DNA of 41,436 nt, taken from positions 1-41,436 of IMG/VR virus record IMGVR_UViG_3300048894_000085. The stretch is one strand, 5' to 3'. The position numbers and the translations under genes are program-made. Within the stretch, counting starts at the first letter, position 1. Each line of letters starts with the position of its first letter. Shown in pieces: positions 592 through 41,436 of this stretch. This DNA comes from a virus. The notes beneath the pieces are model-generated. The model ran no database searches and was not told the origin of the DNA. It saw nothing but the letters and a program-made list of their open reading frames with translations.

Positions 592-609
592 GCCAGTCGA
601 AAGACTGGC
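592..609 (-). terminator. Hairpin gccagtc-gaaa-gactggc flanked by A8 on the + strand 5' side (T8 after the stem on the minus strand)
   Basis: 7-bp GC-rich stem immediately after the stop at 585. A U-tract is present only for a minus-strand transcript; the + strand continues 'aaacctat'. Confidence 0.4.
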
Positions 610-663: not shown

Positions 664-691
664 TTGTCTTTCAATTTCTTTTGTGTATAAT
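664..691 (+). promoter_or_regulatory. Candidate sigma70 promoter TTGTCT-16-TATAAT in the rep leader
   Basis: ttgtct at 664-669 and tataat at 686-691. About 260 nt upstream of the rep ATG. Confidence 0.35.
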
Positions 692-736: not shown

Positions 737-769
737 AATGACTATAAGTCATTGCTTTAAAAGTCATTG
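737..769. promoter_or_regulatory. Inverted repeat AATGACT-ata-AGTCATT plus a direct repeat of AAGTCATTG (746-754 and 761-769): candidate Rep operator
   Basis: Perfect 7-bp inverted repeat at 737-753. The 9-mer is repeated 15 bp apart. It shares the AAGTC core with the iterons inside rep. Confidence 0.35.
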
Positions 770-865
770 GATTTATCTTGAGTTTAATATTAGTATTTGA
801 GACAGTCGATAAGGAGAGCCTAGATAACTCTCCCCCGATGGAAATATCCATTTTCAGAGCAAAAC

Positions 866-913
866 ACCATTAAAAAATAGTCTTGGTCAGACGTTGTTAA
901 TTTTAATGGTTTT
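866..913 (+). promoter_or_regulatory. Leader hairpin ACCATTAAAA...TTTTAATGGT followed by TTT: attenuator-like structure 40 nt before the rep ATG
   Basis: 10-bp perfect inverted repeat (866-875 / 901-910) with a 25-nt loop, then ttt. Two smaller hairpins precede it (813-833 ggagag/ctctcc; 838-851 atgga/tccat). Confidence 0.35.
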
Positions 914-951
914 ACTCTAAAAAGCAATCATTAAATTTAACAAGGATAGCT

Positions 952-1824
952 ATGATAGAGAATAAAAAAGAAGTAAATTCAATTAAACTTTTACATGCTA
1001 TTCGTCAAATTCCCGCTACTTTAATCTCTGCAAACGAAAAATATATCTTAACTATTATTCTCTCTTGTATAAATATTGACAATATAACTTGGCATTCAAT
1101 GGATATTATTGCTGAATTTGCATGTGTTAGTAGATGGACAATTAGTAGACATATTAAAACATTAGAAGATAAAAAATTCATTTCAATCGTAAAACCTAAT
1201 CATTATACCCATGATGAAACAAATCATTATAGTTTAAATATTGACCTAATCTTATCTTTTTCTGTGGATAAGTCGCGTAGCAAATTGCTACATGATCCTA
1301 AAGTCGCGTTGCAATCTGCTACGCAATATACACAAGTCGCGTTGCAAGTTGCTCCAAGTCGCGTAGCAGATTGCAACGCCCTATATAATGAAGTAGAAGA
1401 AAAAAGAAGAAAGAAAGAAGAGAGGAAACGCGCACGCGAAAAACGCGTGCCACTCTCTGATTATTTTTTACCCAATGAAAAACTGAATGCGCTCATTCGT
1501 GAGACTTCAACCAAATCGGGCAAGTCCCCAGAAACCCTTTTGGCAAAATTTAAAAATATCCAAAAATCCAAAGACGGAACCAGCGCAGATTGGAATGCAG
1601 AGTATGAAAATTATTTGCACAATGAAAAACCACAGGGGTATGTCACAGGTGTCAGGGGTCAAGGCAACACTGAAATCAAAAGCACTGTACAATTTTATGG
1701 CGTAGGACACCCAGACTATGAGCGAGATAAGGAAATCAGGGAACGGGCAGAGCGAGAAAGGATTGCTAGAACTTCGCTCTCCCTCATGGATATGCAAGAA
1801 AAACGAAATAGCAAGTCACATTAA
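952..1824 (+). CDS. Replication initiator-like winged-HTH protein (lambda O / plasmid Rep-like) containing its own iteron array
   Basis: N-terminal HTH pattern 'MDIIAEFACVSRWTISRHIKTLEDKKFISIV'. Four 21-bp iterons and a purine tract lie inside the gene. C-terminal half is basic. Confidence 0.7.
   Translation: MIENKKEVNSIKLLHAIRQIPATLISANEKYILTIILSCINIDNITWHSMDIIAEFACVSRWTISRHIKTLEDKKFISIVKPNHYTHDETNHYSLNIDLILSFSVDKSRSKLLHDPKVALQSATQYTQVALQVAPSRVADCNALYNEVEEKRRKKEERKRAREKRVPLSDYFLPNEKLNALIRETSTKSGKSPETLLAKFKNIQKSKDGTSADWNAEYENYLHNEKPQGYVTGVRGQGNTEIKSTVQFYGVGHPDYERDKEIRERAERERIARTSLSLMDMQEKRNSKSH
1270..1376. repeat. Four iterons AAGTCGCGTWGCAAnnTGC (1270, 1301, 1334, 1356): candidate replication origin
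   Basis: Copies: aagtcgcgtagcaaattgcta / aagtcgcgttgcaatctgcta / aagtcgcgttgcaagttgctc / aagtcgcgtagcagattgcaa. Spacing is 31, 33 and 22 bp. Each contains a GCA..TGC dyad. Confidence 0.7.
1395..1450. promoter_or_regulatory. 34-nt all-purine tract (1395-1428) followed by palindrome GCACGCG-aaaaa-CGCGTGC (1432-1450), next to the iterons
   Basis: Read directly. The layout of iterons followed by an easily melted asymmetric tract mirrors lambda ori inside gene O. Confidence 0.55.
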
Positions 1825-2059
1825 GTTTTATTTTGAGCATTATCATGAGGATCTGAATTACTTTGATGAATATTTAAACAATGTGTTAAAATTCGATATC
1901 GACAAAGCACTGGATTGCTGGCGTTCGTTATCGAAAAATTTGGAGTTTTACAAAAGGGAAAGGATTAAAAATGAACAATCGAATCAACGCGTGGTACCAA
2001 AAAAAGCAGCTTATCAAAAAAAAGGTAAGTTTTGCGCAGCTTACCGAAGCACAACGTAA
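1718..2059 (+). CDS. Hypothetical ORF in the +1 frame relative to rep; real start unclear
   Basis: Plausible protein-like stretch 'KFYFEHYHEDLNYFDEYLNNVLKFDIDKALDCWRSL' begins after the rep stop. There is no ATG after 1824, and the 3' end overlaps ORF 1972-2142. Confidence 0.25.
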   Translation: MSEIRKSGNGQSEKGLLELRSPSWICKKNEIASHIKFYFEHYHEDLNYFDEYLNNVLKFDIDKALDCWRSLSKNLEFYKRERIKNEQSNQRVVPKKAAYQKKGKFCAAYRSTT

Positions 2060-3899: not shown

Positions 3900-4148
3900 T
3901 TATTTTAATAATTCATCAAGTGATTTATCAAACGCATTAAAAATAATGAGTTCTAATACTTTACTTTTTGCAATGTTAATGCGTGCTTCCTGACATAAGC
4001 GAGCGGTGAGTTCGTCTAGTGCTTCGACTGCATTTAAAGTAATACGATATGTTTTAGTGAGATATTTCGATTCGCTCATTAAACCTATTTTTTCATCTTT
4101 GGGACTACTGGTTGTCATCATGCTTGAAACTCCTTTTAATTTAGACAT
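3900..4148 (-). CDS. Ribbon-helix-helix partition adaptor (ParG/ParB-like, type Ib)
   Basis: 82-aa protein directly downstream of ParA and overlapping it. C-terminal 'YRITLNAVEALDELTARL...SKVLELII' has a beta-helix-helix pattern. Confidence 0.55.
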   Translation of the reverse strand: MSKLKGVSSMMTTSSPKDEKIGLMSESKYLTKTYRITLNAVEALDELTARLCQEARINIAKSKVLELIIFNAFDKSLDELLK

Positions 4149-4912
4149 ATAATTTCCTCTGCTAACGCGTTAAAATCTTTTGCACCGTTAGAATGCGGTG
4201 CATAAAGAAAAATGGGTAATCCTTCGATCTTCGCTTGATTGATATTTTCATCTTGACGAATAATGGTTTTCAGAATTTGGTCATAAATCATCATCTCAGA
4301 TAGTTTGGCTTCGATATATTCGTTCGTTTTAGATTTTCGTACATCCTTTTGGTTGCGTAAAATATGATAGGAATGCGCTCTGTTTTCTTTTATTTCACGC
4401 GTGACTGCAAATAAATCATACATACCTTCTAATGCATCATTTTCATAAGTAATAGGAACGATAATTTTATCTGCTGCTAAAATTGCATTCACTGTTAAAT
4501 CGCCAAGAGTAGGGCAGCAATCAATAAAACAATAATCAAACTGATCTTTTATTTTATGAAGTTGACGATATAAAAGAGTTTCACGATAAGGCCGTGAACT
4601 CATTTCACGTTGCGCCATAGCTAAATCAATACGTGCGGGCATAATTGATAAATATTGAGCTATTTCTCGATTATCACTGACTGACATAATAGCACGGGAT
4701 GGATGGGATATTCTCTGTAAAATAACGTCTGAGACTGTATAAGCATCTTTTAAGTGAGTATCTGGAATGGTGCCTTTAGTTGCATTGCCACTCGGATCAA
4801 GATCGACTAATAAAGTACGTTTTGATTTTGTCGCAAAACAATAAGCGAGATTATAAGCGCACGCTGTTTTACCTACGCCCCCTTTTTGATTAATTAAAGC
4901 TATGATTTTCAT
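4136..4912 (-). CDS. parA: ParA/Soj-family partition ATPase
   Basis: Deviant Walker A 'NQKGGVGKT', 'LLVDLDPSGNAT', 'IDCCP' and 'VPI' motifs. 258 aa. Confidence 0.9.
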   Translation of the reverse strand: MKIIALINQKGGVGKTACAYNLAYCFATKSKRTLLVDLDPSGNATKGTIPDTHLKDAYTVSDVILQRISHPSRAIMSVSDNREIAQYLSIMPARIDLAMAQREMSSRPYRETLLYRQLHKIKDQFDYCFIDCCPTLGDLTVNAILAADKIIVPITYENDALEGMYDLFAVTREIKENRAHSYHILRNQKDVRKSKTNEYIEAKLSEMMIYDQILKTIIRQDENINQAKIEGLPIFLYAPHSNGAKDFNALAEEIICLN

Positions 4913-4913
4913 T

Positions 4914-5351
4914 TTATTTTGTCCTATCTTTTATTAATTGTTTTAATTGAATTAATGCACGTTTTGTCTGTATCAATTCTTGTGGTATTTTACTTTTTTT
5001 TATTTTTAATTGAGAAAGTAATAATCTTTTTATATAAGAATCATGAAGTGTCTCTTTTGTTTTTTTAGAATATTGTTTTTGATAGTCAATTCCATTAGGT
5101 GATTTATTCCATTGCAAAGCTTTTTGTATACGTTTTTCGCGATTTTTCAATTCAGTTTTTTTATTATAAATATAAACTGCATTAGGATTCTTAGCTTTAA
5201 AATTCATTGTTTTAATAATATTACATAAACGACATAATTTAACTAATAATGGTTTTCCTGTTTTTTTAGAAATATTTTTTGATGAATAAATCGCAATGTC
5301 TTTTTCATCTAAAATACCATGAGTTTTACATTTTTTATGTTTATGCATCAT
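4914..5351 (-). CDS. Zinc-ribbon/basic/helical family protein (paralogue B)
   Basis: 'CKTHG...LCRLCN' followed by 'LHDSYIKRLL...IPQELIQTKRALIQLKQLI'. The same architecture occurs in 13675-14121 and twice in 40766-317. Confidence 0.7.
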   Translation of the reverse strand: MMHKHKKCKTHGILDEKDIAIYSSKNISKKTGKPLLVKLCRLCNIIKTMNFKAKNPNAVYIYNKKTELKNREKRIQKALQWNKSPNGIDYQKQYSKKTKETLHDSYIKRLLLSQLKIKKSKIPQELIQTKRALIQLKQLIKDRTK

Positions 5352-5550
5352 AGGTAGCTTGAGCCAGCTCGTCTGTAGTAGATTTTTCATTCCATTCCCA
5401 TGTATTTAATTGCATTACACGGCGTATTTTAGATAACGGGAAGTAACGCGCTACAGTATCGGCAGTGTATTTAAAAGCTGTAAAAGCGAGTGTATGTTCT
5501 TTATTGCTGCCACGTTTATCCTCTTCGTAAACTTGATACCAGATAATCAT
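5341..5550 (-). CDS. Hypothetical protein, 69 aa
   Basis: ORF packed tightly within the operon. No motif recognised. Confidence 0.5.
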   Translation of the reverse strand: MIIWYQVYEEDKRGSNKEHTLAFTAFKYTADTVARYFPLSKIRRVMQLNTWEWNEKSTTDELAQATYDA

Positions 5551-14402: not shown

Positions 14403-14974
14403 TGGAAACGTGGTTTACGAGTGACACACATTTTGGCCATAGTAATATTCTTGAATATGAGAAAGAAGCGCGTCCCTTTGAAACAATAGAGAGAATGAAT
14501 GAAGAACTCATTATGCGTTGGAACTCAGTCGTCCATCCCCATGATACTATTTACCATCTTGGTGATTTTTGTTTTGGTAAACATAACCTTAGCATTGCTA
14601 CTCGACTTCATGGGAAAAAAAGGCTTATCCTGGGAAATCATGATCTATACCCTTGCAGCGATTATTTGCAGTATTTTAATAAAGTATTTGGTGTGACTTA
14701 TTGGAAAAATTGTATATTAAGTCATATGCCAATTCATCCTACTTTATTAGGATCACGATTTTTTTTAAATCTACACGGACATTTGCATAGTAAGCATGTT
14801 AGAAGAAATGTATTTCATATGATGGAAATTAAAACAGATAAAGGCCCTGTTCAATTTTCAAAATTTTTTCATGAAGAGAATGATCCTAATTATTTTAATG
14901 TGAGTTGTGAGCAAAATAACTTGACCCCGATCCACAGTGATGAAATTATGAAGCGATTGAAAGAGTTGGAATAA
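14402..14974 (+). CDS. Metallophosphoesterase (calcineurin-like phosphatase fold)
   Basis: 'FTSDTHFGH', 'YHLGDF', 'LGNHD' and 'HGHLH' motifs in canonical order. TAATG-coupled start METWF. Confidence 0.8.
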   Translation: METWFTSDTHFGHSNILEYEKEARPFETIERMNEELIMRWNSVVHPHDTIYHLGDFCFGKHNLSIATRLHGKKRLILGNHDLYPCSDYLQYFNKVFGVTYWKNCILSHMPIHPTLLGSRFFLNLHGHLHSKHVRRNVFHMMEIKTDKGPVQFSKFFHEENDPNYFNVSCEQNNLTPIHSDEIMKRLKELE

Positions 14975-15077: not shown

Positions 15078-15114
15078 TCCATTTTGTTGGAGTTAACAAT
15101 ATGGTTATGAAAAT

Positions 15115-15186
15115 TGGCATGTAGCATAAAGGTAATGCGGCATCCTGTTAAGGTGCTCAGTGCTGGTTCGAGTCCAGCCATGCCAG
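15115..15186 (+). tRNA. tRNA-Asn (anticodon GTT)
   Basis: Manual cloverleaf. Acceptor tggcatg/catgcca; D arm gcat-aaaggta-atgc; anticodon arm gcatc-ctGTTaa-ggtgc; variable region tcagt; T arm gctgg-ttcgagt-ccagc; discriminator G. U1-A72 and G73 match bacterial tRNA-Asn. Confidence 0.9.
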
Positions 15187-15388
15187 AAAGTTTATGGCCG
15201 AGGATAAGTTGAGACGTCCAGCTATTAGCTAATAACTGAAAGTAGGCCACTTGATTTAAATTGATACATTGGGTGAGTAAAAAGAAGGAGGCAATGTATT
15301 TAAATAAAGGAGGTGCGGATATTCGAGGCACTGTTGATTCTATTTTTTTACATCTCTGGGCGGCTTAAACCTATCTATTCTAAACTAT

Positions 15389-19595: not shown

Positions 19596-19789
19596 ATTGT
19601 TCTGACTTTACCGGAAATACCGCGATTGACTTGGGGTTTACGACAAGCTGTCATTGCCCCTGTCATCGCGGTATGCCTTTATGGATAGAATCTATTTGTT
19701 GTGCCTGCAGAATAAATAATTTCAAGAAAAGACCCTCATTAATCGTTATATCAGATAATACAAAAGGACAGTATGTCTATAAATCATGA
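19592..19789 (+). CDS. Possible Cys/His-rich mini-protein, 65 aa (alternatively a structured leader)
   Basis: ATGA overlap with the upstream stop. 'SCHCPCHRG...ICCACR'. It contains the 10-bp inverted repeat 19617-19626 / 19665-19674. Confidence 0.3.
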   Translation: MNCSDFTGNTAIDLGFTTSCHCPCHRGMPLWIESICCACRINNFKKRPSLIVISDNTKGQYVYKS

Positions 19790-20363
19790 ATACAGAGTGG
19801 ATGTTAAGATTAGAAATAATTTATTTATAGAACGGATTGAAGGAGCAGGTTATAAAACGATTGGTGAATTTTGTAGGATAAATAAAATCAGTCAATCAAG
19901 AATTAATGAAATAATTGCTATGAAGTTATCACCCCTCATGTCTAACGGAAAATTTAGATTTCATATCATAAAAACAGCGGATGTTTTAGGTTGCTCTCCT
20001 GAAGATTTATTTACAGATACGCAAATGTCGATGGCTATTAAAAATAATAAATATTGTCTTAAAGTGAATGAAGCTGAAGTAAAATGTATGATAGATCAAA
20101 ATAATCAGCCTCTATTATTAGAAGATCATGTTTTTGAAGATCAAAAAAATAAATTATTAAAAAAAGCACTAGAGACTTTACCTATTCGAGAAAAAAAGAT
20201 ATTGTCTCTTAGATTTGGTTTAGATGATGGTAAAGAGCATACATACCAAGACATTAGTGATGAATTTGGTTGTAGTCGTGAGAATATAAGACGAATTGAG
20301 TCTCAAGCACTACGTAGGCTTAGACATCCTTCAAGATCAGATCAATTGCAGGATTTAATTTAA
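19773..20363 (+). CDS. HTH protein with a C-terminal sigma70 (RpoD) region-4 domain and no region 2
   Basis: C-terminus 'LPIREKKILSLRFGLDDGKEHTYQDISDEFGCSRENIRRIESQALRRLRHPSRSDQLQDLI' follows RpoD region 4.1/4.2, including 'LRHPSRS'. The N-terminus has an XRE-like HTH ('IGEFCRINKISQSRINEI'). Confidence 0.8.
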   Translation: MSINHEYRVDVKIRNNLFIERIEGAGYKTIGEFCRINKISQSRINEIIAMKLSPLMSNGKFRFHIIKTADVLGCSPEDLFTDTQMSMAIKNNKYCLKVNEAEVKCMIDQNNQPLLLEDHVFEDQKNKLLKKALETLPIREKKILSLRFGLDDGKEHTYQDISDEFGCSRENIRRIESQALRRLRHPSRSDQLQDLI

Positions 20364-37960: not shown

Positions 37961-38898
37961 TACATCGCTCCTCTTCTAGCTTGTTGAATTTCAGGCTGAC
38001 GGACAAGTGGAGGGATATCTATCTTATCTAGCTCAGTCTCCATTAACTCCTCACGACGGGCGTCTTTTGCAGCTGTAATCGCTTTGAACTCCTCTGTATA
38101 AAGCTCTTGATAATCGCGATAGACTTTAATGAAATATTCTTTTAATTCAGAGGCTGATTCTGTTTCTGCAATATGAGCCAGTATTTCGGGAAGTTTGTTT
38201 TTAACAAAAGCTTCCTGTTCACTGATGCCGGTATTTAACCATTCCATTAACTTCTCACCCATCTCAGTTGACGGCTTAATGAATTGCTGATCAAACATCT
38301 TGGTATTGTCTTTAGTGATATGCGCGATATGATCCTGATTGCTGATATCCATAAATACAGTGAATTCATATTCCAGACCATCACGCTGTACGGGGGCTAA
38401 ACCGACTTTGCGAGGTTCTGCTTTGCCTCTATCATTTTTCTCTACTACATACTCTGTTTTAACACGGAGTGTAGTAATAATATGCATCTTGCTATTAACC
38501 AGTGCATCAATTAATGCATTTTGCTTTGGTGTACCGACTTTCCAGCCTTGAGTAAAACTATTTGATCCAGCCTTGTCAACTATGGATAATACACCGCCCT
38601 CGCCAACCCAAGCATGAGATAAGCTATCTATGATAAGGGTATCGTAACCGGCTTTTTCAAATGTCTTTATAGCTTCGATGTAACGATCGGGGCTATAGGG
38701 GGCTTCAAGTCTGATAATGTCATAATCAAAGTCACTACCGTATAATTCCCCACGTCCGGCTTCTGTATCAATCATTCCTACTTTACCACCCATTCCTTTT
38801 GCAATTTCTAATGCCGACCACGTTTTACCACTTCCAGATGGCCCGGAAATGCCTAGGCGTAGTTTAGCCTTCTTTCTTTCTGCTTTTCGTATAAACAT
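37960..38898 (-). CDS. Sak4-like AAA_24 / RecA-type ATPase (ssDNA annealing)
   Basis: Walker A 'GISGPSGSGKTWSA' and Walker B 'TLIIDSLSHAW'. 312 aa. Confidence 0.8.
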   Translation of the reverse strand: MFIRKAERKKAKLRLGISGPSGSGKTWSALEIAKGMGGKVGMIDTEAGRGELYGSDFDYDIIRLEAPYSPDRYIEAIKTFEKAGYDTLIIDSLSHAWVGEGGVLSIVDKAGSNSFTQGWKVGTPKQNALIDALVNSKMHIITTLRVKTEYVVEKNDRGKAEPRKVGLAPVQRDGLEYEFTVFMDISNQDHIAHITKDNTKMFDQQFIKPSTEMGEKLMEWLNTGISEQEAFVKNKLPEILAHIAETESASELKEYFIKVYRDYQELYTEEFKAITAAKDARREELMETELDKIDIPPLVRQPEIQQARRGAM

Positions 38899-38906
38899 AA
38901 TTCACC

Positions 38907-39032
38907 TCAGTTAGTTAAACACACATACAATACAAATATCCCTAAACACACAATCGTCCACATTAAATCATTATTGACTAATCTTTTTCTAGGCCATGCC
39001 ATTCTCTCTGCAGCACTCATATAATCTTTCAT
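38907..39032 (-). CDS. Small TM protein, 41 aa
   Basis: ATGA overlap with the upstream stop. Translation is MKDYMSAAERMAWPRKRLVNNDLMWTIVCLGIFVLYVCLTN. Confidence 0.35.
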   Translation of the reverse strand: MKDYMSAAERMAWPRKRLVNNDLMWTIVCLGIFVLYVCLTN

Positions 39033-39451
39033 AATAGATTGTCCTTAAGTTGGTCGTAGGCTTCATCTGGATTACCATTCTTAGCTACCGCATCACTCCA
39101 TTCATTGCGCTCGCTGCGATAATGATCCCAGACATAATTAAACAGTTCTTCCATGGATCGGTCGTAATAATCGATTGCATTTTTCTTAATCACTTCTAAG
39201 AAATTTTCATCATCAATAGCAGTCCCGCACAGGGCTTTTCTAAAATAGGAAATAGTTTTATCAAGATTGTCTGATTCAAAGATAAAGTCATGCTCACTCT
39301 GACTACCCGCTGATTCGCTGAGTAATGAGGCTAATTGTGCTTTATCGTGTTCGGAAAGGTCGAAGTAATGATCATAGTCATAATCAATGATGAGATCTGC
39401 AATATACGTTAAGACCTTTTTGGTTTTGTAGATGGGATTAGGATATTTCAT
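39029..39451 (-). CDS. Hypothetical acidic protein, 140 aa
   Basis: Start MKYPNPIYK lies one nt after the upstream stop. Confidence 0.55.
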   Translation of the reverse strand: MKYPNPIYKTKKVLTYIADLIIDYDYDHYFDLSEHDKAQLASLLSESAGSQSEHDFIFESDNLDKTISYFRKALCGTAIDDENFLEVIKKNAIDYYDRSMEELFNYVWDHYRSERNEWSDAVAKNGNPDEAYDQLKDNLL

Positions 39452-39452
39452 A

Positions 39453-39623
39453 TTAACCATTCCTTTGGTCATTTCTTTGACAATTAGTATTATTGCCATG
39501 CTGTCCTTCGCATAATTGACATACTATATCTTTTTCTGATTTTCTTTCATATAGATACCAGAGTCCATCTAAACCATATTCGCTATATAAGTCAAAATCA
39601 GTTTTTAAATCTCTACTATTCAT
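39453..39623 (-). CDS. Hypothetical protein, 56 aa (first gene of the leftward early operon)
   Basis: Start MNSRDLKTDF is preceded by AGGAAA. Confidence 0.45.
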   Translation of the reverse strand: MNSRDLKTDFDLYSEYGLDGLWYLYERKSEKDIVCQLCEGQHGNNTNCQRNDQRNG

Positions 39624-39657
39624 TATCGTTTCCTCATTTGTAATCATCATGTACACG

Positions 39658-39687
39658 ATATTAAACTTAATGCTTAACGCTTGTCAA
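39658..39687 (-). promoter_or_regulatory. Leftward early promoter TTGACA-18-TAATAT
   Basis: Reverse complement of 39682-39687 is ttgaca, and of 39658-39663 is taatat. Confidence 0.45.
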
Positions 39688-39691
39688 GCAT
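39670..39691. promoter_or_regulatory. Operator-like imperfect palindrome ATGCTTAAC-gctt-GTCAAGCAT overlapping the leftward -35
   Basis: 8 of 9 positions are complementary between the two arms. Confidence 0.45.
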
Positions 39692-39716
39692 CTTGCAATC
39701 ATTATGAGTAAATTTG

Positions 39717-39744
39717 TTGACATATTAATTTAAGATGGTATAAA
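39717..39744 (+). promoter_or_regulatory. Rightward early promoter TTGACA-16-(TGg)TATAAA with an extended -10
   Basis: ttgaca at 39717-39722 and tggtataaa at 39736-39744. 'aaggagg' SD before ATG 39768. Confidence 0.6.
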
Positions 39745-39767
39745 GCACATATTAAGGAGGAGTTAAA

Positions 39768-39974
39768 ATGAAAAGCTCAGAAATGATAAAAAGAATACGC
39801 TTGTCTTTCTGTCTTGATCAGAAAGAATTCGGCGAACTCATCGCAATGAGCAGACAAGCAATCTGGCAATATGAAAAAGGTATTCGTAAACCTCGGCTAC
39901 CTACTATTCGTAAATTGTTAATGTTAGCAAAAAAAAATCATATAAAGACATGCACAGAAGATTTTATGGAATAA
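39768..39974 (+). CDS. XRE-family HTH regulator (Cro-like position)
   Basis: 'LDQKEFGELIAMSRQAIWQYEKGIRKPRLPTIRKL' is a classic HTH_3 pattern. 68 aa. Confidence 0.8.
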   Translation: MKSSEMIKRIRLSFCLDQKEFGELIAMSRQAIWQYEKGIRKPRLPTIRKLLMLAKKNHIKTCTEDFME

Positions 39975-39983
39975 GGAATAGGA

Positions 39984-40283
39984 ATGAACGCACCGCATAA
40001 GATTAAAAAAGAGGATATAAGTATGAAAGCATCTGATTTAAGTAATAGAGTAGTTCGATTAGAAACTATCATTGAGCACATTCATTTATCACTTGAAAGA
40101 ATAGAGAAAAGATTTGATGATTTAGAAAAAAATATTAATATTCGTTTTGATAAAATTGAACAGCGTTTAGATAAAAGTGAAAATCGTTTATGGATAAACT
40201 TTTATTTTATGCTAACTACAATAATTGGATTATCTGGAACACTTGGCGCAATTATGGCTAAAGGTTTCGGATGGTTTAAATAA
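39984..40283 (+). CDS. Coiled-coil protein with a C-terminal TM anchor (XhlA-like architecture)
   Basis: Repeats 'RLETIIEHIHLSLERIEKRFDDLEKNINIRFDKIEQRLDKSENRL' followed by the TM 'INFYFMLTTIIGLSGTLGAIMA'. Confidence 0.5.
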   Translation: MNAPHKIKKEDISMKASDLSNRVVRLETIIEHIHLSLERIEKRFDDLEKNINIRFDKIEQRLDKSENRLWINFYFMLTTIIGLSGTLGAIMAKGFGWFK

Positions 40284-40313
40284 AGTTTTTTTAACTACAG
40301 TAAGGACGTTTAA

Positions 40314-40760
40314 ATGAGAAACCGTAAAAATAGCTTTGAAAGTTTGTTTTCAAAAATAGATTGGGTCATGATCGAATCAAAACGTACATGGCGATTATCC
40401 CCTGATCATGTTGCCATTGGCTTTTATCCTAAAGACAAAAAGAAACCTGACATTATAAATGATGTTAGAATCAGAATTGGTATGAATGTGATGGATAAGT
40501 TGCAATGGAATTATGGTGATAAAATATGTGTTCTACATGATCCAGATGATTTAATGAGTTTTTATCTAACACGATCAGATACCGGCAAAGGCTTTTCATT
40601 AGGAAAAGAAGCAGAATCTGGCACAGGACGAATTCAATTTAAATGGGATCGTGATATAGCCATTGAGCAAATTAATTCACATGCCGTTAAATTTCATATT
40701 CATAAAGGCGGTCTTGTTATATTCCGTGTTGGCAATCAAGAAGAAGATGAAGATTTATAA
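40314..40760 (+). CDS. Hypothetical protein, 148 aa
   Basis: ORF with an acidic tail. No motif recognised. Confidence 0.55.
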   Translation: MRNRKNSFESLFSKIDWVMIESKRTWRLSPDHVAIGFYPKDKKKPDIINDVRIRIGMNVMDKLQWNYGDKICVLHDPDDLMSFYLTRSDTGKGFSLGKEAESGTGRIQFKWDRDIAIEQINSHAVKFHIHKGGLVIFRVGNQEEDEDL

Positions 40761-40765
40761 ATTTT

Positions 40766-41436
40766 ATGTCTGACTTTAAATTATCCAATGACCCCATTGT
40801 TAAATTAGATGAGAATTCTTACTATTGTAAGATTCATCCCTATGCTTTTGGCGATTCTTTTGTAGAAGTCACTAATAAAAAGACTAATACAACTATGATT
40901 CGATGTGGTTATTGTGAAAATATAAAAGAGGAAAATAAAAAACTACGTGCAGAAGAATGGCAAAAAGAGAAAGAAAATATTACGCCGTATTATGTACGGC
41001 GTATTCTTACTACAGGTCGTAATATAAAAATGCATCAAATTCCTGATGAATTAGTTGAAGTGAAAACGGCTGTCATCCAATTAAATCGTTTGAAAGAAAA
41101 AATAGATGCACCCATAAAAGTTTGTTCAAGACATGGTAATCTATATGAAAATGCTGTGATTAAAGCAGGAAAAAATAAAAGTGGTGAGCAAAAATATAAA
41201 TGTAAAGCGTGCATGAGTTCAATTCATGCTCGTAATTATCAATTAAACAAAGTTAAAATAGCTATTAGATGTGCAAAATACAGATCTGAGAATAAAGAAA
41301 AGGTGAGAGCGCAGAAACAAAAATCTTATATGAAGTATCAAATATCCTATTTAGATAAACATATTATAGATAATGCTTATCTAAGACATAAAATAGAAGA
41401 ACGATTAGTTAAAAAGAAGGCCGCTAATAAACGGGA
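40766..41436 (+). CDS. N-terminal part of the junction-spanning double zinc-ribbon/basic protein (paralogue A; continues at 1-317)
   Basis: Hand-translated. Module 1 is 'YCKIHP...RCGYCEN...YYVRRIL...IPDELVEVKTAVIQLNRL'. Module 2 starts 'VCSRHG...KCKACMS'. The frame is still open at the window end. Confidence 0.7.
   Translation, partial: MSDFKLSNDPIVKLDENSYYCKIHPYAFGDSFVEVTNKKTNTTMIRCGYCENIKEENKKLRAEEWQKEKENITPYYVRRILTTGRNIKMHQIPDELVEVKTAVIQLNRLKEKIDAPIKVCSRHGNLYENAVIKAGKNKSGEQKYKCKACMSSIHARNYQLNKVKIAIRCAKYRSENKEKVRAQKQKSYMKYQISYLDKHIIDNAYLRHKIEERLVKKKAANKR
41310..41436. repeat. Second copy of the 127-bp terminal overlap
   Basis: Identical to 1-127. Confidence 0.95.

Follow-up and report, generated by a model that had tools for sequence, protein, structure and literature searches.

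A candidate replication origin nested in the initiator gene of an uncultured tailed phage

Results

A predicted origin inside rep

The IMG/VR virus record IMGVR_UViG_3300048894_000085, a 41,436-nt stretch that was analysed at its full length (hereafter, the window), carries inside its initiator gene rep a contiguous set of DNA elements that is best read as the phage's origin of theta-type replication, placed where the gene codes for a linker. On the sequence comparisons described below, we put the probability of this reading at roughly 80%. The elements (1263–1458) are a DnaA box, four phased iterons with dyad symmetry, an A-rich tract with strong strand asymmetry and a GC-rich palindrome, and they fall between the parts of rep coding for the DNA-binding and C-terminal domains of its product. 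An original prediction had placed a lambda-like origin here, within a winged-helix Rep open reading frame (ORF), and all of the elements were indeed located in ORF 952–1824; the DnaA box was absent from that prediction. The features are as follows.

952..1824, plus strand: rep (290 aa), an ORF encoding a winged-helix N-terminal domain, a linker, a charged helix and a helical C-terminal domain
Parts of Rep: winged helix, aa ~10–101; disordered linker, aa ~107–143; charged helix, aa 141–163; C-terminal domain, aa ~168–262
1263..1271, minus strand: perfect DnaA box, TGTGGATAA (minus-strand sequence, TTATCCACA); shares two bases with the start of iteron 1
1270..1293, plus strand: iteron 1, AAGTC plus the dyad GCGTAGCAAATTGCTACAT; offset 0 in the rep frame
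1301..1324, plus strand: iteron 2, AAGTC plus the dyad GCGTTGCAATCTGCTACGC; offset 1
1334..1357, plus strand: iteron 3, AAGTC plus GCGTTGCAAGTTGCTCCAA, with a degenerate right half-site; offset 1
1356..1379, plus strand: iteron 4, AAGTC plus the dyad GCGTAGCAGATTGCAACGC; offset 2
1380..1428, plus strand: A-rich, strand-asymmetric tract and proposed unwinding element, with an all-purine run at 1395–1428
1419..1458, no strand assigned: GC-rich palindrome with inner arms GCACGCG/CGCGTGC (1432–1438 and 1444–1450), an A5 loop and outer arms AGAGAG/CTCTCT

The repeat core AAGTCGCGTWGCA was found in exact form at 1270, 1301, 1334 and 1356 with spacings of 31, 33 and 22 bp, in agreement with the original prediction. 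This count was reached in none of 100 dinucleotide shuffles, and one extra match with a single mismatch was located at 14596. The predicted consensus, AAGTCGCGTWGCAAnnTGC, has 19 letters rather than the 21 bp given for it, and copy 4 departs from it by one base (GCAG versus GCAA). Similarly, the predicted internal GCA..TGC dyad is present but reaches further than had been described, since each iteron extends to a 19-bp near-palindrome, GCGTWGCAnnnTGCWACGC. The core of iteron 2 (1306–1324) is the perfect reverse complement of the core of iteron 4 (1361–1379). When up to three mismatches were allowed, the 19-bp dyad matched nowhere in the 41-kb window except at the four iteron sites (0.21 matches expected). 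The array begins 36% into rep, the GC content of the iterons is 48%, and CpG is threefold enriched over 1263–1450.

Repeat arrays in the relatives of rep

No relative of the rep region was found by blastn and tblastn among about 50,000 sequenced phages and 72,000 plasmids, or by two pattern-based scans (with the N-terminal and C-terminal domain alignments) of the GTDB species-representative genomes. An exhaustive HMMER search yielded 116 cluster representatives of the Rep family at E ≤ 0.001, including the closest relatives, which a word-indexed protein search had missed. A contig encoding the identical Rep is present in run SRR35925347. The family is modular: some members have the N-terminal domain only, some have the C-terminal domain only (SADWNAEYENFLxNERP...GPGHP), and some have both.

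DNA was compared for 20 loci, i.e. the window and 19 further distinct ones. All 19 relatives contained two to four repeats of lineage-specific sequence at the same place inside rep, and most of these repeats were visibly dyad-symmetric. Absence of the repeats from related genomes had been named in the original prediction as an observation that would speak against an origin; arrays were present in all the relatives examined. Examples of the iterons are listed below.

L007: AAGTCGGrGGTCACACAG
L008: TCGCATGTCAAAATGAC
L023: GCACGCAGATTCTGCGT
L024: GGGTCCGAATCGGACCC
L011: GGTGATCCACAGATCACC
L003: AGGTATGCTGACAGC

In the clear four-copy arrays, the spacings clustered at 31–33 and 21–24 bp, with one of 43 bp in L019, while the arrays in L001, L012, L013 and L023 were less regular under the cores searched. 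Behind most arrays there was an A-rich tract, and behind about ten a GC palindrome that was perfect over arms of 5 nt or more. The syntenic sister phage L004 (a 40.9-kb ENA contig) retains both the DnaA box and the exact 31/33/22 spacing, and its dyad arms have changed in concert from GCGTAGCA/TGCTACGC to GCGTATAA/TTATACGC.

Across the relatives, the repeat sequence changes along with the N-terminal domain of Rep. Two loci, L021 and L022, share 97–100% identity across the greater part of 5.6 kb; in a few 100-nt windows, identity falls to 88–94%. The exception is a block of ~440 bp (2501–2940) with 50–67% identity, which comprises the rep N-terminal domain and the iterons and ends in the purine tract. 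Since this divergent block corresponds exactly to the N-terminal domain plus iterons, the DNA-binding domain and its iterons evidently travel as a single specificity cassette. This natural swap is the strongest single piece of evidence in the analysis.

The same observations bear on whether the array could be the centromere (parS) of a ParA partition system. A ParA gene (4136–4912) lies 2.7 kb away, and no other convincing repeat array was found near it. On the other hand, the array lies inside rep in 20 of 20 loci, its sequence tracks the Rep N-terminal domain and is swapped with it, and no ParA-like gene was called in the fetched stretches of L005, L019, L021, L022, L023 and L024. The parS reading is thus very improbable and was rejected.

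Selection on DNA rather than protein

The same repeat DNA is read in three frames and gives the peptides KSRSKLL, KVALQSA, QVALQVA and SRVADCN; these peptides and the poly-E/K/R stretch that follows them, both quoted in the original prediction, agree with the ORF translation. In an AlphaFold (AF2) model of Rep, the predicted local confidence score pLDDT exceeded 93 for aa 10–101 and was below 50 for aa 111–136, the latter being exactly the iteron-coded part, while the purine tract and palindrome code for the helix at aa 141–163. Rep of L004 is 60% identical to that of the window over the part called as P0003. Codon differences between the two rep genes at positions 1/2/3 were as follows.

N-terminal domain (aa 1–103): 25/19/46, a normal third-position excess
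Iteron segment (aa 104–143): 13/14/10, with 52% amino acid and 69% nucleotide identity
A-rich tract and palindrome (aa 144–167): 4/2/2, with 89% nucleotide identity
C-terminal domain (aa 168–262): 23/25/46, a normal third-position excess

Over the tract and palindrome, just 2 third-position changes were thus seen in 24 codons. On this comparison, the iteron repeats are a DNA feature, selected as DNA rather than as protein: the copies fall in three reading frames, they code for a peptide with predicted disorder, and no third-position excess is seen. It could be argued that they instead reflect a protein linker that is repetitive or low in complexity, the DNA itself having no role, since the region does code for repeat-like peptides and a K/E/R-rich stretch, and peptide repeats occur at the same position in other family members as well. 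Such a linker, however, would not explain why one DNA repeat yields different peptides in three frames, why amino acid identity is lower than nucleotide identity without a third-position excess, why the peptide is predicted to be disordered, or why the dyad arms co-vary between phages. We give this explanation hardly any probability, and the protein-repeat reading was rejected as contradicted by the frame analysis.

A DnaA box adjoining the array

The box at 1263–1271, which is read in rep as Val-Asp-Lys, is the sole perfect DnaA box in the 41-kb window. A perfect box was also found at the array in 10 further loci (L004, L007, L008, L009, L011, L013, L016, L019, L023 and L024), and perfect boxes were rare elsewhere in the loci examined. 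The block TGTGGATAAGTCG is kept in L004, L007, L008 and L009 despite their differing iterons, and L007–L009 have a second box, with one mismatch, 18 bp upstream. Among the other N-terminal domain classes, the box occurs in either orientation, as TTATCCACA in L011, L013, L019, L023 and L024 and as TGTGGATAA in L016. Depending on its orientation, the box is translated as VDK or as LST (Leu-Ser-Thr); 36 of 120 family proteins had either of these in their linker, as compared to 6.7 ± 2.5 for shuffled linkers. We consider it fairly probable that DnaA takes part in initiation.

We also compared the presence of the box with that of a phage helicase gene. Of the 15 loci (window included) without a helicase gene in the fetched stretch, 11 had a perfect box at the array; of the 5 loci in which a phage dnaB lies directly downstream of a short rep (L003, L005, L021, L022 and L028), none did. 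The hypergeometric chance of this split is about 0.008. Box presence thus tracks absence of a phage helicase gene, an association that is only suggestive because the five helicase loci all belong to one clade. Tentatively, the in-frame DnaA box may be a functional alternative to a phage helicase, with long-Rep modules, which have the new C-terminal domain, borrowing host DnaA and through it DnaB, and short-Rep modules carrying their own DnaB and losing the box. As part of the same proposal, a lambda-shaped origin would initiate in the manner of an RK2/P1-type plasmid, with the GC palindrome as a further origin element; taken jointly, these points may hold, with the odds somewhat against them.

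Two loci lacking a perfect box, L010 (2357–2456) and L015 (2333–2409), have iterons that contain TGATCCACA, a one-mismatch DnaA box, in GGTGATCCACAGATCACC. The binding specificities of iteron and DnaA may overlap in these phages.

The purine tract and the GC palindrome

The 34-nt purine run at 1395–1428, noted in the original prediction, consists of 24 A and 10 G and proved to be the longest homopurine/homopyrimidine run in the window, the runner-up being 20 nt. The GC content of the tract (29%) is below that of the iterons and far below that of the palindrome (67%). The prediction had called it an AT-rich unwinding region. A tract does follow the iterons as described, but what distinguishes it is strand asymmetry (A/T skew of 0.76, in the top 0.14% of windows) rather than AT-richness. 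The Arg codons switch from AGR (3/3) in the purine tract to CGC (3/3) in the palindrome, while AGR and CGC account for 29% and 11%, respectively, of the Arg codons in 17 long ORFs of the window.

The predicted palindrome GCACGCG-a5-CGCGTGC at 1432–1450 was likewise recovered, and it extends through the outer arms to 1419–1458. It codes for ...RKRAREKRVPLS. Folded as single-stranded DNA, it reached −12 kcal/mol (z = −3.3), a value equalled by 1 of 200 shuffles. Palindromes were compared as arm sequences per locus, and the arms varied compensatorily among loci (GCACGC/GCGTGC, GCGCGC/GCGCGC, GGCGCG/CGCGCC and GCGAAC/GTTCGC). Column-wise pair counting was unsuitable here because the centre shifts by 2–3 nt relative to the flanks in some relatives, so that no single structure fits all rows.

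The stability of the hairpin and the compensatory arm variation would also be expected if the palindrome acted in the rep mRNA, as a pause, attenuator or processing hairpin, and were not part of an origin; a consensus scan flagged a terminator-like site on the minus strand at 1447–1431. However, the stem has no U-run after it on the sense strand, a match to an Rfam family was not obtained, and in some relatives the centre is displaced by a few bases against the protein alignment. The palindrome, moreover, always lies 38–52 nt after the A-rich tract, and that of lambda is in the same place. A role confined to the mRNA is therefore considered unlikely.

The rep leader and the points against an origin at the array

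Upstream of rep, three further features were recorded.

592–609, plus strand: terminator-like hairpin closing the upstream gene (consensus match only)
664–691, plus strand: promoter-like site for rep (consensus match only)
746..951, plus strand: conserved non-coding leader of about 190 nt directly upstream of rep

The best part of the leader (roughly 770–951) is about 90% identical to L004, as compared to 65–71% for the rep coding DNA. It can be recognised before rep also in L004 (2640–2853), L013 (1859–2039) and L011 (1841–2054), which include a different N-terminal domain class, and its hairpin GGAGAG...CTCTCC is replaced compensatorily by GGGGAG...CTCCCC. Possible roles are those of a structured leader of rep, a target for an antisense control RNA or an element controlling rep expression. 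A scan of viral contigs with the leader pattern gave two matches, both within unrelated coding DNA and attributable to chance. A one-mismatch DnaA box (TTATACACA, 682–690, minus strand) overlaps the −10 hexamer of the promoter-like site, and perfect DnaA boxes are present upstream of rep in L011 (1885), L015 (1659) and L016 (484). DnaA may thus also regulate rep transcription.

Several observations weigh against an origin at the array. The strongly conserved leader could carry origin functions itself. The GC skew was 0.149 upstream and 0.198 downstream of the array; the switch that had been proposed as a check on the original prediction was thus absent or uninformative, and the cumulative GC skew, which peaks at 36.7 kb, follows gene orientation. 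The duplex stability of the tract is only at the 6th percentile, i.e. moderately low, and 40-bp windows of lower stability occur close by, at 1037 and 1221. A helix is predicted with confidence for the K/E/R tract and the motif ARxKRxPLS, and the conservation of this segment could therefore be partly at the protein level. No perfect palindrome with arms of at least 5 nt was found in L009, L012, L019 and L023, and L015 has just CGCGC/GCGCG, which is short and has no loop. A perfect DnaA box is missing from four helicase-less loci, and the link between box and helicase comes from few, phylogenetically clustered loci.

In one alternative, the array is a Rep-binding control element (for autoregulation, copy control or handcuffing) and initiation occurs elsewhere, e.g. 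in the rep leader. The conservation of the leader above that of the rep coding DNA, its recurrence before rep genes with a different N-terminal domain, the DnaA boxes upstream of rep and the lack of a skew signal at the array are all in favour of it. Against it, the leader contains no iteron copies, whereas the DnaA box, phased iterons, asymmetric A-rich tract and GC palindrome are contiguous, are conserved as a unit and mirror the element set of the proven lambda origin; in addition, the known control arrays of iteron replicons accompany origin iterons and do not replace them. We accordingly assign this alternative a small probability and retain the reading of the array as the origin.

Proposed mechanism of initiation

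If the array is the origin, initiation would proceed as described below. Rep dimers would bind the four dyad iterons via the N-terminal winged helix. The iteron spacings correspond to ~3, 3 and 2 helical turns, which would place the bound proteins on one face of the DNA, where they could bend or wrap it. Host DnaA would bind the adjoining DnaA box and cooperate with Rep. Together, Rep and DnaA would strain and open the A-rich, purine-asymmetric tract, a low-stability island, and the GC-rich palindrome would bound the opening. RK2 oriV continues into a G+C-rich segment. As at RK2 oriV, host DnaB would then be delivered via DnaA, the C-terminal domain of Rep or both; neither a DnaB-like gene nor a recognisable lambda-P-like loader was found in the window.

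The Rep protein and its genomic context

In Pfam, aa 25–77 of Rep matched HTH_36 (2.9e-6), and the remaining matches at E ≤ 1 were weak and of a generic helix-turn-helix type. No lambda O family model (Phage_rep_O) was among these Pfam matches, and no Rep_3-type match was obtained either; Rep has a single winged-helix domain, not a WH1-WH2 pair. Weak matches to PHROG 270/391, 'replication initiation (O-like)', were obtained (1.9e-7 over aa 25–117). In a fold search against predicted viral structures, the N-terminal domain could be superposed, with an rmsd of 2.4 Å over 90 columns (E = 6e-5), on the O protein predicted for Min27, a lambdoid Stx phage. Sequence and fold searches of the PDB gave generic winged-helix matches only. 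The C-terminal domain matched nothing in NCBIfam or PHROGs.

A small ORF (1718–2059, plus strand) overlaps the 3′ end of rep in another frame and is conserved in L004 (WICKKNEIxSHI..FEHY). It occupies the position of the lambda P loader gene but is far smaller than P, and no PHROG or NCBIfam match was found for it. A P-type loader was not found downstream of rep, the ORFs at 1971–2141, 2205–2615 and 2634–2927 being not loader-like.

The window is a circular assembly, its final 127 nt (41310–41436) being identical to 1–127, and thus represents a closed circle or terminally redundant unit of 41,309 bp. One ORF spans the circle junction (about 40770–41436 joined to 1–317). The genes are those of a tailed phage, with small and large terminase, portal, head-closure protein and GH108-type endolysin genes, alongside which there are genes for a ParA-like ATPase and for a Sak4/Gp157 recombination module. 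No integrase was found among the ORFs scanned. The ParA-like gene lies on the minus strand, followed by an ORF (3900–4148, minus strand) for a ParB-like protein of 82 aa, and a divergent HTH_3 (Cro-like) gene is located at 39768–39974. The ParA-like gene, the Cro-like gene and the lack of an integrase among the scanned ORFs suggest a plasmid-like prophage lifestyle.

Other features include a 196-aa sigma-70 region 4 protein (19773–20363, plus strand; Pfam 2.3e-17) encoded amid the structural genes and a tRNA-Asn (GTT) gene (15114–15187, plus strand) just upstream of the large terminase gene. Two Cys-rich ORFs, one at 4914–5390 (minus strand) and the other being the junction ORF, share the C-terminal motif IPxELVExKRAxxxL and look like HNH- or zinc-ribbon-like paralogues, one of which gave a weak match to PHROG 'endonuclease'.

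Discussion

The general principle behind the proposed origin is textbook lambda and iteron-plasmid biology. Nevertheless, the origins of uncultured phages are almost never annotated, and this Rep family is unrepresented among the cultured phages and plasmids searched. The family supplies a rule for finding origins, namely to look inside rep for a winged helix followed by dyad repeats in phase, an A-rich tract and a palindrome, and the repeat sequence would serve as a signature of specificity or incompatibility. If the trade-off between DnaA box and helicase is real, it shows how phage replication modules alternate between hijacked initiation factors of the host and factors that they encode. 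Compact cassettes of a Rep domain and its cognate iterons, with different specificities, could then also be used to build compatible replicons.

Comparison with known origins

In lambda, the origin occupies the middle of gene O and consists of four iterons and an AT-rich sequence of 38 bp (PMC3349717, PMC7466680), the purines of the A+T-rich stretch are nearly all in one strand, and the iterons bind O dimers, while plasmid iterons bind monomers (PMC5043065). When the lambda origin was read directly from NC_001416, its four annotated 18-bp iterons were found in frames 0, 2, 2 and 1 with spacings of 20, 24 and 23 bp, followed by ACACAAAAGACACTATTACAAAAGAAAAAAGAAAAGATTAT (26 A of 41) and then, in our reading of the printed sequence, an imperfect inverted repeat of roughly GTCAGAGAATTC...GAATCCTCTGAC. 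The array begins 39% into gene O, close to its place in rep. The two systems share an origin in the linker-coding middle of the initiator gene, four dyad iterons in three frames, and an A-rich tract of ~40–50 bp with its purines nearly all on one strand, followed by a palindrome. The N-terminal domain and iterons form an exchangeable specificity cassette, as in the lambda O/ori module, and the predicted fold of the Rep N-terminal domain resembles that of a lambdoid O, namely that of Min27. The original reading, in which the logic is that of lambda ori within gene O, is thus supported, and each comparative test made spoke for a lambda-type origin within the initiator gene. The origin is, however, not simply a copy of lambda's, since a DnaA box is present and no recognisable lambda-P-like partner is encoded. 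A perfect box adjoins the array here, while no DnaA box within one mismatch was found in lambda 38600–40400; the spacings of the two arrays also differ, and the C-terminal domain of Rep belongs to an unannotated family.

In the plasmids RK2, P1, F and pSC101, DnaA boxes beside the iterons and DnaA-mediated delivery of DnaB are established, and RK2 oriV has the order DnaA box, iterons and A+T-rich unwinding element (PMC4980987). The window resembles RK2 oriV, P1 oriR, F oriS and pSC101 in this order of DnaA box, phased iterons and A+T-rich element and, as far as the sequence indicates, in depending on host DnaA and DnaB; a ParA partition gene on the same replicon is a further likeness to iteron plasmids. 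In contrast to those plasmids, the origin lies inside the rep coding sequence and not beside it, Rep combines one winged helix with an unrelated C-terminal domain instead of the WH1-WH2 arrangement of Rep_3/TrfA, the dyad iterons appear to imply binding by dimers, as in lambda, and the replicon is a tailed phage and encodes terminase, portal and endolysin.

The modules with a short Rep and a phage DnaB (L003, L005, L021, L022 and L028) share with the window a homologous winged-helix N-terminal domain, a purine-rich tract and, in the linker, four iterons in phase. They differ in that their Rep (~190–207 aa) lacks the C-terminal domain, a DnaB-family gene directly follows, and no DnaA box is present at the array. 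Among these known systems, the origin in rep is best filed as a putative lambda-type intragenic origin with a plasmid-type DnaA box and without a P-like loader.

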